NCBI GenBank assembly: GCA_014729595.1
Contig: WJJU01000318.1
Location: forward strand, 1 to 15,135
Length of the DNA stretch: 15,135 nucleotides
Direction: 5' to 3'
From: Chitinivibrionales bacterium
GTDB taxonomy: Bacteria; Fibrobacterota; Chitinivibrionia; Chitinivibrionales; WJMI01
The translations under genes were made by a program, and so were the position numbers. Shown one piece after another: positions 367 to 5,370 of this stretch. Each line of letters opens with the position of its first letter. Within the stretch, counting starts at the first letter, position 1. The notes beneath the pieces were generated by a model. That model did no database searches and was not told where the DNA came from. It saw nothing but the letters and a program-made list of their open reading frames with translations.

Positions 367-971
367 AAGCCGTCCTATAAATGCTGATCCCGCCGGCGGG
401 GTAGCGGAGCGCGACGGGGCCGGATGTGAGGGGCGGGTGCACGAGAGACATGATGGTTTGATCCCGAAGGGATCATAGTAGTTAAGCTCCGGAACGGCTG
501 TGACACTGAGGCGCAACCGACTATATACACATCGTTCGAGCAGCAACTCGGGCCACATGGATGGGTGGAGATGCCGCTTGCGGGACGAAGGCTGCCCGCG
601 CCCCCCCAATGAGGGCGGGCGCGAACAGGATGGTCTCATCCCGCCCTACGGCCGATGTGAGTATGCCTAAGACGGCTTCGGGTAACGATGGTTAATGCGG
701 AGAGCCGGATAATTGTAATGCTTGTTTTTCTTATTAAATGGCCCAACCCGGCTCACCGCCGAAGCAATAGATGAAGCGAACGTCGCCCGTAGTGACCGAC
801 CAATGTCAATGCGTTCGGCCAAGCCTCTTCTCACTTCCGAGCAGCCTGTTTTCGAAAATGACAATGGTGTGCGTCATTTTGCCATTTCGTAATCGGCTCC
901 GGCCGTGGCACATCCTTTGCGTGATCCACCACTCTTTCGTATCGCCCGACATATTGATTCAGGAGGTATCC

Positions 972-1160
972 GTGAAAGCTGTCGTAGATCAAGACACCTG
1001 TATTGGCTGTGGTTTGTGTCCCGACGTATGTCCGGAAGTGTTTGCTATGGACGACAACGAGAAGGCATACACCAAGATTGAGGAAGTGCCGACTAATGTG
1101 GAGAGCAAGTGCCGCGAGGCCGCCCAAAGCTGTCCCGTCGAGGCGATAACCATCGAATAA
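972..1160 (+). CDS. Small single-cluster [4Fe-4S]/[3Fe-4S] ferredoxin, 62 aa.
   Basis: GTG start at 972-974 lies 5 nt after a perfect AGGAGG (961-966). The track ORF 771..1160 is this gene with a spurious 5' extension. The product 'MKAVVDQDTCIGCGLCPDVCPEVFAMDDNEKAYTKIEEVPTNVESKCREAAQSCPVEAITIE' has the CxxCxxC...CP cluster motif and strongly resembles the 60-aa ferredoxins of Thermotoga and Pyrococcus. Confidence 0.85.
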   Translation: MKAVVDQDTCIGCGLCPDVCPEVFAMDDNEKAYTKIEEVPTNVESKCREAAQSCPVEAITIE

Positions 1161-1334
1161 ACAGACGTGCAACCGGGTATTGAACCTCGCCGGTCCGCCG
1201 CCGCGGAATCGCACCGTGTTTTAATACCCTGAGCAAGGTTTATGACAACTCTTGCTTCCCGCCCCGATCACCGCAATGCGCAACTGCGTCACATCGGAAT
1301 AAGCGGATATCATAAACCAGCTCTGAGTATTGAT

Positions 1335-1355
1335 TGTTTGCATCTTCGGTAAACA
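1335..1355. promoter_or_regulatory. Imperfect inverted repeat tGTTTGC-N7-GTAAACa lying 50-70 bp upstream of the EncFtn start. It is a candidate operator overlapping a weak -35/-10 (TTGCAT ... GGTAAT).
   Basis: Seen directly in the sequence: the arms are 1335-1341 and 1349-1355 with one mismatch. The call is positional only. Confidence 0.25.
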
Positions 1356-1403
1356 TCCCGGTAATGCGGTTACGAACCGGTTTAATGAAAGGAAGGAGAC
1401 TAC

Positions 1404-1799
1404 ATGGCGGAGTTTGTTAATCCATTTGTGGGCATGGTCCCAGACCGTAAACTAAGCAACCGGGAATTGCTGCGAGGGTTACGGCAATCGCTGGCCGCCG
1501 AGCAAGAGGCGGCTCATCTCTACTTGGCTCTCGCGGACGCCACCGACAATCCCTTGGCTCGTCGCGTTCTCGAAGACGTGGCCGATGAAGAACGGGTGCA
1601 TGCGGGAGAATTCCTGCGCCTTATAGAGATTCTCGCTAAAGATGAACAAAGCCTGCTTGCCCAGGGGACGCGCGAAGTGGAAGAAATGCGGGAGGAACTT
1701 CGGGGAAAAGGAGCAGCGGCCGCGAAAGAGGAAGATATGAGCGAAGAAGAGCCGCGGCAAGACATCCCTTCAATAGGTAATTTGCGCGGTGAACGTTAA
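1404..1799 (+). CDS. Encapsulated ferritin-like protein (EncFtn / Flp cargo) with a C-terminal encapsulin targeting peptide.
   Basis: An RBS AAGGAAGGAGA precedes the ATG. The core 'ELLRGLRQSLAAEQEAAHLYLALADATDNPLARRVLEDVADEERVHAGEFLRLIEIL' follows the EncFtn pattern (E..A..Y ... EE..HA..L with ExxH metal ligands). An acidic linker and the tail '...DIPSIGNLRGER' resemble the GSL/IGxL-type cargo-loading peptide. The gene sits immediately upstream of the shell gene. Confidence 0.8.
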   Translation: MAEFVNPFVGMVPDRKLSNRELLRGLRQSLAAEQEAAHLYLALADATDNPLARRVLEDVADEERVHAGEFLRLIEILAKDEQSLLAQGTREVEEMREELRGKGAAAAKEEDMSEEEPRQDIPSIGNLRGER

Positions 1800-1848
1800 A
1801 CCGTCGCAGAGGAATACAAAGCAATTTGATTTGAGGAGGCTATGACCT

Positions 1849-2661
1849 ATGTCCGATAAATTGCTCCACAGATCCGATGCCCCTTTCAGCGAGAAGACAT
1901 GGCATCAGATTGATTTGGCGGTACGTGACGCCGCGATAAGCGAAGTGAGTGCACGAAGAATTCTTGAGACGAAAGGCCCCTACGGGATTGGCCTCAAGTC
2001 GCTTCCTCTCGCCGACCGGCCTCTGGAAAAGGAGTCCGACGACACGGTAGAGGTTGCGGTCGACGCCGCCGTTCCAATGCCGCTCATCTCAACTTCATTC
2101 AGCATAGCGGCGCGAGACATCGATAATTTTGAGCGTTACGGTCTACCCTTGGATACCGGCGCGGCCTCCGAAGCGGCCGTCGCATGTGCGCGCAAGGAAG
2201 AACAATTGCTCTATTACGGCGCTCCCGAAAGCGGTATCCCGGGTTTGTTGACCGGCGACGGCGTACAGGAGATAAGCCTTAAGAAATGGGACGACGTAGG
2301 GGAGGCGGCCGAAGACATTATTCGCATAATCGATAAGATGGACGGCGCGGGTTTTCACGGGCCTTTCGCCTTGGCGCTGGCGCCCGCCCGCTACAATGCA
2401 CTCTTCCGTCGCTACCCGCAAGGTCCAATGATCGAGATTTCACACATACGGGAGTTGGTTACCGGGGGAGTTATAAAAGCGCCCGCCATCCAAAAAGGTG
2501 GCGTGCTTATATGCACCGGCGAACGACTCGCCTCAATTATCCTTGGCCAGGACCTTCTTACCGCCTTTGAAGGACCGGAGGGAAGAAACTACACATTCGT
2601 GTTGTCCGAAAGCCTTGGACTTCGTCTTTCGACTCCCGCCGCCGTTTGCCGATTGAAATAA
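1849..2661 (+). CDS. Family-1 encapsulin nanocompartment shell protein (HK97 fold, linocin M18-like), 270 aa.
   Basis: 'MSDKLLHRSDAPFSEKTWHQIDLAVRDAA...TKGPYG...GAPESGIPGLL...HGPFALALAPARYNAL...LILGQDL...' aligns block-for-block with the Thermotoga maritima encapsulin (LKRSFAPLTEKQWQEID...EGPYGW...GCEKSGVKGLL...EGPYTLVINTDRW...LILGQDL). A GAGGAGG RBS is present. Confidence 0.9.
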   Translation: MSDKLLHRSDAPFSEKTWHQIDLAVRDAAISEVSARRILETKGPYGIGLKSLPLADRPLEKESDDTVEVAVDAAVPMPLISTSFSIAARDIDNFERYGLPLDTGAASEAAVACARKEEQLLYYGAPESGIPGLLTGDGVQEISLKKWDDVGEAAEDIIRIIDKMDGAGFHGPFALALAPARYNALFRRYPQGPMIEISHIRELVTGGVIKAPAIQKGGVLICTGERLASIILGQDLLTAFEGPEGRNYTFVLSESLGLRLSTPAAVCRLK

Positions 2662-2757
2662 TCGAAAATCCAATGACAAGACTAAATGAAACAACAATAA
2701 TCTTTATACTGCGGTGAGCAGTAAGTAGTCAATTAACTTTTTCGAAGGAGACGTCCC

Positions 2758-3153
2758 ATGCCGGCACTTGCCGATCTATACCAGACCGCCGACTGGAAAA
2801 CCGAAAAACATGTTCCCTCCATTGAGCTTCCCGATGTTGTACGGCGAGGTGAATTTTTTCCGATCACCGTAACGATAGGCAAAGAAGTAGCGCATCCCAA
2901 TAAGACTGAACATCATATCAGTTGGATCGGGGTCTACTTTCAGCCCCAGGGAAGCAAGTTTCCCTACGAAATCGGTAAAATGCATTTCACCGCCCACGGC
3001 GCGTCCACCGACGGCCCGGATACCAGCGGCGTCTACACGCATCATCAGGCGACCTTGAACTTTAAGACCGACAAACCAGGCACCGTCTTCGCCGGCAGCT
3101 ACTGCAATATCCACGGTCTCTGGGAAAACTCGCAAGAACTCAAAGTAGAGTAG
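2758..3153 (+). CDS. sor: Superoxide reductase, 1Fe class (neelaredoxin / desulfoferrodoxin C-domain family), 131 aa.
   Basis: A GAAGGAGA RBS lies 6 nt upstream. 'DWKTEKHVPSIE...GKEVAHPNKTEHHISWIGVYF...FTAHGASTDGPDTSGVYT...SYCNIHGLWEN' is near-identical in its motifs to the Pyrococcus furiosus SOR (DWKGEKHVPVIE...HPNTTEHHI...FTAHGESVNGPNTSDVYT...SYCNIHGLWEN), with the His4Cys iron ligands all present. Confidence 0.9.
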   Translation: MPALADLYQTADWKTEKHVPSIELPDVVRRGEFFPITVTIGKEVAHPNKTEHHISWIGVYFQPQGSKFPYEIGKMHFTAHGASTDGPDTSGVYTHHQATLNFKTDKPGTVFAGSYCNIHGLWENSQELKVE

Positions 3154-3519: not shown

Positions 3520-3927
3520 TCAGCCGATTCCGACACTTTTAAGCTGAACAAGGACCAATCCAATCCCTATAATACATATTCCGGTCCACTGAATACCGCT
3601 AAGCGGTTGGCGGAAGACGATGCTTGAGGCAAATTGCAGGACAAAAAACGCTCCACCAATACAAAAAGCGTATATGAGATTAGGATTGGCATTTCTCAGC
3701 GCAAGCGTAAGACAGACCGGACTCGCAAAACCGATACTGGTTCCTAAAAGAAACATTCCATAAAGCTGAGCCCCGGTCCGCTGGGAGGCGAAGCGCAAAC
3801 AAAGGTATGCGCCGGTTTGAGAAATTACAAACCCGATAATACAAGCGAGGGTACGCAAAGAAAACATAGGCACTTTGTGAAATTGAATAGCGGTTGGAAA
3901 TACCGGCGGTGGGCCGTGGGCATACAC
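3520..3927 (-). CDS. Small polytopic membrane protein with about 4 TM helices (SMR/DMT-like). Function unknown and start codon uncertain; alternative ATG at 3867.
   Basis: The 135-aa ORF is almost entirely hydrophobic in four blocks (LACIIGFVISQTGAYLCL, LYGMFLLGTSIGFASPVCLTLAL, LIYAFCIGGAFFVLQFASSIVF, WTGICIIGIGLVLVQL). No convincing SD precedes either ATG, and the canonical EmrE Glu is not conserved, so the family assignment is weak. Confidence 0.4.
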   Translation of the reverse strand: MYAHGPPPVFPTAIQFHKVPMFSLRTLACIIGFVISQTGAYLCLRFASQRTGAQLYGMFLLGTSIGFASPVCLTLALRNANPNLIYAFCIGGAFFVLQFASSIVFRQPLSGIQWTGICIIGIGLVLVQLKSVGIG

Positions 3928-4352: not shown

Positions 4353-4907
4353 TCAAAAAGGAATGTCGTCATCGTCGAGGTCTTCAAACTCATCAATCAA
4401 CGGGCCTAAGTCCCACTCCTCGTCTTCGGCCCCGTCGGGGATCTCACCGTGAACGGCCATCGATATAAAAGCCTCGGAGGCTTCGGTTAGCTGTTGCTCC
4501 AACATGCCCCGCAGCATATTCCAGAAGGGAATAAATATCTCGTCCGCGGCATGCGGCACGATGATTAGGCTGAAACTGTACTTGCCTGAGCGCTTTTTTC
4601 TGCTGTAGTCGAGCCCCAGCCGTTCCGCGAGCGCCTCAAAAGCGGAGGCCGAATACGGATCGAACACATCGATGGTAACCGGTTCCTTCTTGCGTCCCCG
4701 TGACGCCTTCTTCAGCCCCCGCATGACCCCCTCGAGAAGTTCCTGGTGCAATTGGGCATACTGTTCAGCCATCGCACCAATACCTATCTCATCTCTCAAC
4801 GGCATTGCCTCAGGTTCTTTTCGGGTGCCGCCTTTGCCGCCGGTGCCTTTCACCAGTTTGAGTTGAGGACGACCTCGGCCGGACGAGCTTTTTCGCTTAC
4901 GACCCAT
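4353..4907 (-). CDS. Hypothetical protein, 184 aa, with an N-terminal basic AT-hook-like region (SGRGRPQ) and a C-terminus identical to the SSB acidic tip (…FEDLDDDDIPF).
   Basis: The RBS is GGGAG-N5-ATG on the minus strand (4908-4920). The N-terminus reads 'MGRKRKSSSGRGRPQLKLVKGTGGKGGTRK' (AT-hook core RGRP); the middle is a helical, acidic region; and the last residues are DDDDIPF, confirmed by reverse-complementing 4353-4400. The protein shows no OB-fold sequence, so it is not an SSB itself. Confidence 0.55.
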   Translation of the reverse strand: MGRKRKSSSGRGRPQLKLVKGTGGKGGTRKEPEAMPLRDEIGIGAMAEQYAQLHQELLEGVMRGLKKASRGRKKEPVTIDVFDPYSASAFEALAERLGLDYSRKKRSGKYSFSLIIVPHAADEIFIPFWNMLRGMLEQQLTEASEAFISMAVHGEIPDGAEDEEWDLGPLIDEFEDLDDDDIPF

Positions 4908-5100
4908 ACGCGCTCCCTTCTTCCATTGATTACAGATCTATCGGGCGCCCTGCCTCGAATATAGCCCATTCCATTCGTTTCGAACCACTCTTTGAGGTCC
5001 CGGTAGTTGCGTTATGGGCTTTACGTTGGTAATCCACTTGAAAAAAGAACATTCAATAAGCCAAGTGAGTAAAAAACCACTACACAAATCCGTAAGATAT

Positions 5101-5127
5101 TGTATAATTGTTTATAGCAAACATAAT
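5101..5127 (+). promoter_or_regulatory. AT-rich promoter-like region with TG-TATAAT (5101-5108) and a second CATAAT (5122-5127) upstream of the 64-aa ORF. It may also serve the divergent 184-aa gene.
   Basis: The only strongly AT-rich block (5040-5140) in the divergent intergenic region 4908-5175 contains 'tTGTATAATtg', a consensus -10 with an upstream TG. No good -35 is present. Confidence 0.3.
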
Positions 5128-5175
5128 TTTGAACTGCGCACATCTGTCGAGTCAATCCCCGACGGAGGAATCGCG

Positions 5176-5370
5176 ATGACTAAGGATAACGAAGGCCGGA
5201 AGAAAGAAGCGAAGCATGCGACCATTGCTCGGAGCATTCGCGATCGTACTATTGCATTTTTTGACGGGAGACCTGCACGGGAAGAGCCGATCGGCAACGA
5301 GGAAATCAATGATCTGTTGATTGCTCTAAATACATGCACTTCGCTCGAAGAATTTCTATGCTCCGTTTGA
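5176..5370 (+). CDS. Small hypothetical protein, 64 aa.
   Basis: An ATG at 5176 lies 7 nt after GGAGG (5164-5168), and the track ORF 5014..5370 contains it. The product 'MTKDNEGRKKEAKHATIARSIRDRTIAFFDGRPAREEPIGNEEINDLLIALNTCTSLEEFLCSV' shows no recognisable family. It is called on RBS plus promoter context only. Confidence 0.35.
   Translation: MTKDNEGRKKEAKHATIARSIRDRTIAFFDGRPAREEPIGNEEINDLLIALNTCTSLEEFLCSV

Follow-up and report, generated by a model that had tools for sequence, protein, structure and literature searches.

A small Chitinivibrionales protein carries an SSB-type C-terminal tip and a second candidate linear motif on a core without an OB fold

What does an SSB-type tail do on a protein that is not an SSB? 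Bacterial genome maintenance has its central docking handle in the C-terminal tip of SSB, which is also an antibiotic target, and the locus described here encodes a small protein that ends in this tip. The gene lies in a Chitinivibrionales MAG, on a contig of 15,135 bp that was analysed in its entirety and that we refer to as the window. It is preceded by a ribosome-binding site of its own:

4353 to 4907, minus strand: protein-coding gene of 184 amino acids, annotated as hypothetical protein GF344_07405
4913 to 4917, minus strand: Shine-Dalgarno sequence GGGAG, 5 nt 5' of the ATG, by direct reading of the sequence

The sequence places the start codon (ATG) at 4905-4907 and the stop codon at 4353-4355, and the ORF is genuine at these coordinates. 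An earlier note on this DNA had credited the gene with its own RBS, and the GGGAG element agrees with that claim. The product ends in FEDLDDDDIPF directly before the stop codon.

The protein is the sole record of its own 90% cluster, and only two full-length homologues were found among 5.8 billion proteins, namely P0002 (65% identical) and P0003 (59% identical). No further member emerged when genome and metagenome contigs were scanned with back-translated sequences, and a search anchored on the neighbouring, 90%-conserved membrane protein led to the same two loci and no others. The family is small largely because its lineage is poorly sampled, as this membrane protein likewise has the same two homologues only. 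In an exhaustive HMMER search of 1.84 billion representatives, the only remote relatives were P0004 (E = 3e-5) and P0005 (E = 4e-4). Both match the core alone, without the acidic tail and without the basic N-terminal arm, and the features they have in common with it are a DPY motif, a basic hairpin (R-K/R-K/R-G), and an AVHG-like end. The 184-residue protein founds a new family with three full-length members and no curated model. P0004 adjoins a TetR gene and P0005 adjoins SbcCD-like genes; since these contexts are inconsistent, we draw no functional inference from them.

The last residues of the protein carry the main observation, and they are set off from the segment that precedes them:

4356 to 4385, minus strand: EDLDDDDIPF, residues 175-184, SSB-Ct-type acidic tip with a free C-terminus (alignment and codon comparison)
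4386 to 4448, minus strand: variable acidic disordered linker, residues 154-174, with a conserved W-x-L...L short helix (alignment, AlphaFold2, and codon comparison)

The exact SSB tip announced by the earlier note, a DDDDIPF end, is borne out, with the final residues DLDDDDIPF in frame. From typical residue frequencies, we estimate the chance of a random protein ending in DDDDIPF at ~1e-9. The homologues end in DDDDLPF (P0002) and DDDDLPL (P0003), so that the last residue across the three members is F, F, and L; the Leu is known from a single contig, where the codon is TTG versus TTT. In a codon alignment of the three members, 5 of the 10 codons at positions 175-184 differ only synonymously in each pair and one or two carry replacements, whereas the adjacent linker (156-174) has replacements in 10-13 of 19 codons. 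This contrast between a mostly synonymous tail and a replacement-rich linker argues that the tail is translated and selected as protein, and judged from the codon pattern its last 10 residues are under purifying selection. Homologue termini and codon pattern thus dispel the two doubts that had been attached to the tip, namely that its terminus might not be conserved, or that the tail might be untranslated or the frame wrong.

The tip has the attributes of an SSB-Ct motif: it occupies the extreme C-terminus, offers a free carboxylate, is preceded by acidic residues, and is conserved separately from its linker. The SSB-type combination of a disordered linker and a D-D-D-(I/L)-P-F end is likewise present, with one of the three members ending in L. 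In the AlphaFold2 model, the tip (pLDDT 51-56) closes a low-confidence, presumably disordered acidic arm, which is the usual setting for such motifs. By alignment and codon comparison, it is a conserved island within a freely drifting disordered arm, as expected of a functional short linear motif. The final six residues, DDDIPF, are identical to the SSB-Ct hexapeptide described in PMC5872125. Two other readings of the terminus were considered and rejected. Mimicry of the FtsZ C-terminal peptide would involve a DIPxFL motif, which stands in a different register relative to the free end. Recognition as a C-terminal ClpX degron is disfavoured by acidic residues close to the terminus.

Upstream of the tail, the only part of the protein common to P0004 and P0005 is a folded core:

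4449 to 4775, minus strand: folded alpha/beta core, residues 45-153, in the order alpha-beta-alpha-beta-beta-alpha (AlphaFold2 and alignment)

The AlphaFold2 model, built from the three-sequence alignment (mean pLDDT 69.7), shows a confident core (pLDDT 79-92 for residues ~50-140) between two low-confidence segments, residues 1-42 and 154-184. Helices span residues 43-69, 84-97, and 118-153, and strands span residues 75-81, 100-106, and 109-116. Two basic loops, SRGRKKE (69-75) and SRKKRxGKY (102-110), are conserved, as are the motifs DPY and AVHGE. The statement of the earlier note that the protein lacks an OB fold holds: the model contains none, there is no SSB Pfam match, and a search of the protein for the N-terminal OB-fold domain of SSBs (PF00436) did not find it. 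No significant family match came from searches with Pfam, NCBIfam, PHROGs, PADLOC, or a PDB sequence profile. Weak matches to RTP, L7Ae, and Lig_C were treated as noise, and Foldseek matches in PDB and BFVD (LAGLIDADG, an RNA-ligase C-terminal domain, and a DUF2786 protein; E ~0.01-0.1, TM ~0.2-0.35) are too weak to assign the core.

How unusual is such a tip outside SSBs? We scanned viral and metagenome contigs for DNA encoding DDDDIPF followed by a stop codon; the scan requires four Asp and provides samples, not a census. E. coli-type SSBs were called by an OB-domain profile, which may miss divergent SSBs. Among the matches listed, 119 viral ORFs end in DDDDIPF, 51 matching the OB profile and 68 without it; 61 complete ORFs of this non-OB set fall into 36 families. 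The listed viral carriers include alternative SSBs (DUF669, gp32-like, and gp2.5-like), an SF2 helicase family with five members, a Toprim primase, an MCM-like primase-helicase, a 5'-3' exonuclease (FEN-type), Top1-type zinc-ribbon proteins, and many unknowns. The metagenome contigs contributed 114 ORFs among the matches listed, split into 58 with and 56 without an OB-profile match. Pfam identified two exonuclease VII small subunits (XseB), two DUF4062 proteins, and one HerA/DUF87 ATPase among the listed non-OB carriers, and inspection by eye added a DnaE-type polymerase fusion and another SF2 helicase.

Thus, of the 233 carriers among the matches listed, drawn from two independent samples, roughly half are not E. 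coli-type SSBs by this profile, and the helicases, primases, nucleases, and XseB among them are clearly non-SSB. The nameable non-OB carriers listed are overwhelmingly DNA-metabolism proteins. This distribution argues that the tip is a portable module, carried mostly by DNA-metabolism proteins and marking membership of their network. It makes the present finding less singular and at the same time raises the prior for a functional tip of the same network here. None of the other DDDDIPF carriers listed shares the core of the window protein, and our literature searches found no general account of SSB-tip borrowing.

The second conserved element lies in the N-terminal arm, in which the earlier note had seen an AT-hook:

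4890 to 4907, minus strand: MGRKRK, residues 1-6, invariant basic N-terminal island (alignment and codon comparison)
4848 to 4880, minus strand: GRGRPQLKLVK, residues 10-20, XB-like motif that includes RGRP (alignment, SspB comparison, and background scan)
4833 to 4871, minus strand: RPQLKLVKGTGGK, residues 13-25, conserved island within the disordered N-terminal arm (alignment, AlphaFold2, and codon comparison)

Conservation in the N-terminal arm concerns MGRKRK and RPxLKLV(K/R)GTGGK, with many synonymous changes in the codon comparison; the linker that follows (27-44) has replacements in 12-15 of 16-18 codons. Within residues 10-20, conservation is limited to RP, L, K, L, V, and K/R. The window copy does contain SGRGRPQ (residues 8-14), and thereby RGRP amid basic, Gly-rich residues, as in an AT-hook. 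However, this core is not conserved among the homologues, changing to GERP in P0002 and GGRP in P0003, and no AT-hook model matched, so that the AT-hook reading is not upheld.

The island instead resembles the XB (ClpX-binding) peptide of SspB, RGGRPALRVVK, which serves as a tether to the ClpX N-domain (PMC3983244). RGRPQLKLVK and the corresponding GGRPALRVVK of SspB are identical at six of ten positions, with two conservative differences; GGRPNLKLVR of P0003 likewise has six identities to XB, and the counterpart in P0002 is GERPQLKLVK. The XB consensus used, [RK]G[GA]RP[AST][LV]RV[VI]K, derives from 80 Enterobacterales genomes and ~120 protein clusters, that is, from one order; an SspB protein search and a genome scan returned Enterobacterales only, and the comparison covers this order and the literature. 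Across 772,948 residues translated from the ORFs of all retrieved loci, the pattern P.L[KR][VLI]V[KR] matched members of the family only, which puts its chance in a 184-residue protein below ~2e-4, before any correction for the motif having been chosen post hoc.

At the level of sequence only, the arm has an XB-type peptide like that of an SspB-type adaptor, and it is disordered in the AlphaFold2 model. All true SspBs carry the substrate-binding domain PF04386, for which the window protein gave no match, and phmmer searches of both arms against the PDB returned no informative match. XB is reported to bind ClpX's zinc-binding domain irrespective of where the peptide stands in the chain, and the contact of SspB with ClpX functions also in bacteria without SspB (PMC12373786). 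The conserved island fits an XB peptide better than an AT-hook, and we regard the resemblance as a lead, not a demonstration, of candidate ClpX tethering.

In its observed layout, the protein consists of a folded core between two disordered arms, and both motifs are conserved and selected. Our preferred reading, to which we give a probability of roughly 40%, is a small protein of the cytoplasm that would serve the SSB partner network as adaptor or hub through tip mimicry and might be tethered to ClpX; here, we infer both the binding events and the direction of effect. The core (~45-153), with its two conserved basic loops, lies between two arms with one conserved linear motif each. The tip, DDDD(I/L)P(F/L)-COOH, would dock like the SSB tail into the SSB-Ct-binding pockets of genome-maintenance proteins, in which a hydrophobic site would accept the last residue and basic residues would receive the carboxylate and the aspartates. 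Partners might in this way be recruited to wherever the core and the basic N-terminal arm bind, or be competed away from SSB. Through its RPxLKLV(K/R)G arm, the protein may be anchored to the N-domain of ClpX; alternatively, this arm may bind nucleic acid. The protein could be a recruiter, a degradation adaptor, or a competitor that titrates partners from SSB.

The reading that still serves best is an adaptor or competitor within the network of SSB partners, and it is indirectly supported because the same tip occurs on many non-SSB replication and repair proteins. Several points weigh against it. With three members only, from a single poorly sampled lineage, the evidence from conservation is shallow. 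The neighbouring genes, which serve oxidative stress or encode a membrane protein and a hydrolase, provide no link to DNA metabolism, and the fold matches of the core are generic and define no binding target. The likeness to XB was a post hoc observation. Finally, the terminal Phe is regarded as critical in SSB-Ct binding, and one homologue ends in Leu in its place.

The strongest alternative is that the protein is itself an alternative SSB, whose basic arm and basic loops bind ssDNA or RNA and whose acidic tail self-inhibits when free and recruits when bound, as in SSB, T7 gp2.5, and T4 gp32. The order of its parts, a presumed binding module followed by an acidic disordered linker and then the tip, matches the layout of SSB, and charge is strongly segregated along the chain (+11 for residues 1-30 versus -15 for residues 154-184). 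The loops SRGRKKE and SRKKRxGKY are conserved, the latter persisting as RKRGQH or RRKGQH in the remote homologues. Several of the non-OB viral tip carriers among the matches listed, moreover, are DUF669, gp32-like, or gp2.5-like proteins, and the weak fold matches include the nucleic-acid-binding KH (with ssDNA), S6, S10, and LAGLIDADG. However, no fold or sequence match to known ssDNA-binding families is significant, the net charge of the core is 0, and P0004 and P0005 have the same core without tail or basic arm. We consider a nucleic-acid-binding protein of SSB-like logic rather unlikely. It overlaps with the adaptor or hub explanation and does not exclude it.

The main rival outside the network is a purely intramolecular, autoregulatory tail, which would mimic nucleic acid and pack against the basic arm and loops of the same protein, its likeness to SSB being convergent and an SSB partner absent. 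The extreme opposite charges at the two ends would suit such a tail, as would the tolerance of Leu as last residue in one homologue, and there is precedent for acidic C-terminal tips that autoregulate a nucleic-acid-binding core in Hfq (PMC5606850). Hfq resembles the present protein in being small, with a disordered acidic C-terminal tip and basic nucleic-acid-binding surfaces; it differs in fold and tip sequence, and its tip, which targets the core of Hfq itself, is not known to double as a shared docking peptide. Charge mimicry leaves unexplained why a strict (I/L)-P-(F/L) end is kept at the free C-terminus while the linker varies, and the recurrence of the exact heptapeptide in dozens of DNA-metabolism proteins that are unrelated speaks for an external receptor common to them. 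We judge a tail that acts only within its own chain to be unlikely.

A more specific version of the adaptor reading gives the protein two heads. The XB-like arm would engage the ClpX N-domain, the tip would serve as bait for proteins with an SSB-Ct pocket, and the protein would hand these over to ClpXP, which would then set their levels. We consider it distinctly unlikely that all of these steps apply together.

The N-terminal island could instead be a beta-clamp-binding motif (QLKLV against the consensus QL[SD]LF or QLxLxL), through which the protein would bridge the sliding clamp and SSB partners at the replisome. QLKLV does fit Q-L-x-L-hydrophobic in two of the three members and sits in a disordered N-terminal arm, its combination with an SSB tip would make functional sense, and the clamp-binding motif of Hda is located at the N-terminus. 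However, Gln, the most conserved position of clamp motifs, is Asn in P0003 (NLKLV), Val is unusual as the last position, and the invariant flanking R-P and (K/R)-G-T-G-G-K would stay unexplained, whereas 8-9 of 10 positions are accounted for in the comparison with XB. As its Gln varies among the aligned sequences, a clamp-binding motif is the weaker alternative to XB, and we hold it to be very unlikely.

The genomic context bears on the one remaining proposal, in which the earlier note had placed the gene in an accessory-looking neighbourhood and had suggested an anti-defence role. The nearest features are:

3520 to 3867, minus strand: SMR/EamA-like small membrane protein of ~115 amino acids (from MFSLRT), downstream of the gene; the matches are weak and any functional link is putative
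5123 to 5155, minus strand: sigma-70 promoter-like matches ~215 nt upstream of the gene, in a lower-GC divergent intergenic region (consensus matches only)
5176 to 5370, plus strand: divergent small ORF of 64 amino acids (from the MTKDNEG start), without a family, beside the gene in all related contigs

The membrane protein is 90-91% identical in the related contigs. The divergent ORF measures 60-64 amino acids across the window and the related contigs and may form one unit with the tip-bearing gene. The intergenic region upstream of the gene has a GC content of 0.47 versus ~0.55 and contains divergent promoter-like sites. The same genes flank it in three related contigs; L001, one of the two contigs with P0002, departs from the common arrangement downstream of the gene. 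The other neighbours in the window encode a ferredoxin, an EncFtn/rubrerythrin-like protein, an encapsulin, a desulfoferrodoxin, an alpha/beta hydrolase, an AMP-binding/carrier/acyltransferase fusion, an FHA-SLT protein, and a partial TssM. The neighbourhood described by the earlier note therefore stands as to the downstream membrane protein and the lower-GC, promoter-like upstream region, but the accessory island gives way to conserved chromosomal synteny.

Searches of the window for tRNA genes and Rfam families found none, and the protein matched no PADLOC or PHROG family. tblastn found no relatives in 50,697 phage records, and in 72,556 plasmid records two chance-level matches only and no relatives. 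Since synteny is conserved and phage and plasmid relatives are absent, an anti-defence or mobile origin is unsupported; the gene is chromosomal and lineage-specific, and no obvious accessory or anti-defence gene. An accessory or mobile AT-hook protein that binds DNA and titrates SSB partners as a decoy or anti-defence factor, as a genuine tip, the RGRP in a Lys/Arg/Gly-rich segment of the window protein, and a tiny, lineage-restricted family might suggest, is highly improbable given the unconserved RGRP, these negative searches, the retained synteny, and a family size that reflects poor sampling of the lineage.

If non-SSB proteins display the same handle as SSB, the SSB-binding pockets would be contested, and recruitment, competition, and perhaps targeted proteolysis could all run through one peptide. 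The gene offers a clean, minimal case of this situation, with a tiny core that contains no enzyme domain and with a pair of conserved linear motifs, and is well suited to biochemistry. The by-product of our survey, that about half of the listed DDDDIPF ORFs are not E. coli-type SSBs, may outweigh the gene itself.

Among known systems, bacterial SSB is the obvious reference for the tail, its terminus in E. coli being MDFDDDIPF. The window protein has the identical terminal DDDIPF (DDDLPF in one homologue), an acidic disordered segment before the free C-terminus, a hydrophobic L at -8, and a tip that is kept while the linker varies. In contrast to SSB, it has neither an OB fold nor an SSB Pfam domain, its body being an unrelated alpha/beta core; its linker is short (~20 residues) and acidic instead of Gly/Pro/Gln-rich, and one family member ends in Leu. 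With the other DDDDIPF carriers that lack an E. coli-type OB domain, it shares the same C-terminal heptapeptide; however, most of those have a recognisable enzymatic or ssDNA-binding domain, whereas here a small core is joined to a second motif. As the SSB-type tail is known, what is new is its apparent pairing, on a minimal non-enzymatic core, with a second candidate motif.

The closest characterised precedent is found in phage T7, where the acidic tails of the gp4 primase-helicase and the gp2.5 SSB compete for the same basic patches of the polymerase (bioRxiv 10.64898/2026.05.20.726333). Like the window protein, gp4 is a non-SSB protein with an SSB-like acidic C-terminal tail. The two differ in tail sequence, in partners (basic patches of the phage polymerase in T7), and in the replisome context of gp4; the present gene is chromosomal and its product has no enzymatic domain.

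For the N-terminal arm, the counterpart is the SspB XB peptide, in which L161 and V164 are important. Their counterparts are invariant in the present family, which has G-x-R-P-x-L-(K/R)-hydrophobic-V-(K/R) in a flexible arm on a folded domain. Here, however, the motif is N-terminal instead of C-terminal, PF04386 is absent, and the host is not a proteobacterium. Synthetic CLIPPER degraders have been built on the XB peptide (PMC12373786), and a protein with a ClpX-binding arm and an SSB-type tip as bait would follow the same logic of anchor, linker, and bait.

Many proteins without an E. coli-type SSB OB domain carry the DDDDIPF tip. Among the matches listed in scans for DNA encoding DDDDIPF followed by a stop codon, an E. 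coli-type SSB OB domain was absent from 68 of the 119 ORFs in the viral sample (IMG/VR viral contigs, L093-L212) and from 56 of the 114 in the metagenome sample (metagenome contigs, L213-L332). The viral carriers without an OB domain fall into at least 36 families; families among the viral carriers include SF2 helicases, primase, primase-helicase and 5'-3' exonuclease, as well as the alternative SSBs DUF669, gp32-like and gp2.5-like. Judged from these sequences, the SSB tip looks like a portable module that has been borrowed widely; a literature search found no general account of such borrowing. Individual carriers from the metagenome sample are as follows.

Selected metagenomic ORFs ending in DDDDIPF
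L223, 99 aa, ending 9137-9160, minus strand: XseB (Pfam Exonuc_VII_S)
L227, 116 aa, ending 2907-2930, plus strand: XseB (Pfam Exonuc_VII_S)
L213, 320 aa: DUF4062 protein (Pfam-confirmed)
L255, 324 aa: DUF4062 protein (Pfam-confirmed)
L231, 726 aa: HerA/DUF87-type ATPase (Pfam-confirmed)
L229 and L329: HerA/DUF87-type ATPase fragments (by eye)
L297, 1164 aa: putative DnaE-type polymerase III alpha-like protein (by eye)

Both exonuclease VII small subunits match Exonuc_VII_S with E-values of about 1e-18 to 1e-19. Their C-terminal extensions end in DDDDIPF, which suggests that in some bacteria the small subunit connects ExoVII to the SSB partner network. DUF4062 and HerA/DUF87 domains are frequent in defence-like systems, and on such proteins the tip could be a means of sensing or engaging SSB partners. 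By eye, the L297 ORF fuses its polymerase part to a uracil-DNA-glycosylase-like C-terminal region.

The remote homologues P0004 (L004-L009) and P0005 (L010, 7375-7791; L011, 3052-3468), which share only the alpha/beta core of the tip-bearing protein, possess an N-terminal helical hairpin. This hairpin resembles DUF2786-type motifs, although a Pfam search gave no match. The P0004 gene follows a TetR regulator gene, and that of P0005 adjoins divergently oriented SbcCD-like genes (Metallophos and SMC_N).

Divergent from the tip-bearing gene, a small ORF of 60-64 aa is present in all four contigs, and its conserved C-terminal half reads F(L/F)(D/E)GRP...PI...(E/D)DI..L.IALNT..SLE(E/Q)FL..V.

Small divergent ORF and intergenic blocks
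Window 5176-5370, plus strand: small ORF
L001 2732-2914, L002 590-772, L003 1884-2078: its counterparts in related contigs
Window about 5062-5085 and about 5100-5115: two short conserved blocks

A search for a family match to this ORF found none; it may be a functional partner of the tip-bearing gene. Both blocks lie in the divergent intergenic region and are kept across three lineages (the window and the upstream regions of L001 and L003). One is ACAATTATAC.ATAT; the other, which in the window reads GTGAGTAAAAAACCAC, is an imperfect palindrome similar to GTGA-N-TCAC. A role as promoter or operator elements is possible.

The window also carries a four-gene oxidative-stress or iron cluster (957-3153, plus strand). 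In L003, ferredoxin, rubrerythrin and desulfoferrodoxin genes likewise lie close to the tip-bearing gene, and encapsulin is not present beside it.

Other genes of the window
957-1160, plus: ferredoxin
1404-1799, plus: rubrerythrin/EncFtn-like protein
1849-2661, plus: encapsulin shell protein (Linocin_M18)
2758-3153, plus: desulfoferrodoxin
6856-9528, minus: 890-aa protein in which AMP-binding enzyme, phosphopantetheine carrier and acyltransferase domains are fused
9748-11736, minus: FHA-domain protein
12079-15135, running past the contig end, plus: partial TssM/IcmF, a membrane component of type VI secretion

The middle of the FHA protein is long and disordered; the protein also has a transmembrane segment and, at its C-terminus, an SLT lytic transglycosylase domain. 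Its gene adjoins the partial TssM/IcmF gene. The 890-aa fusion has a type of architecture similar to that of acyl-ACP synthetase/2-acyl-GPE acyltransferase.
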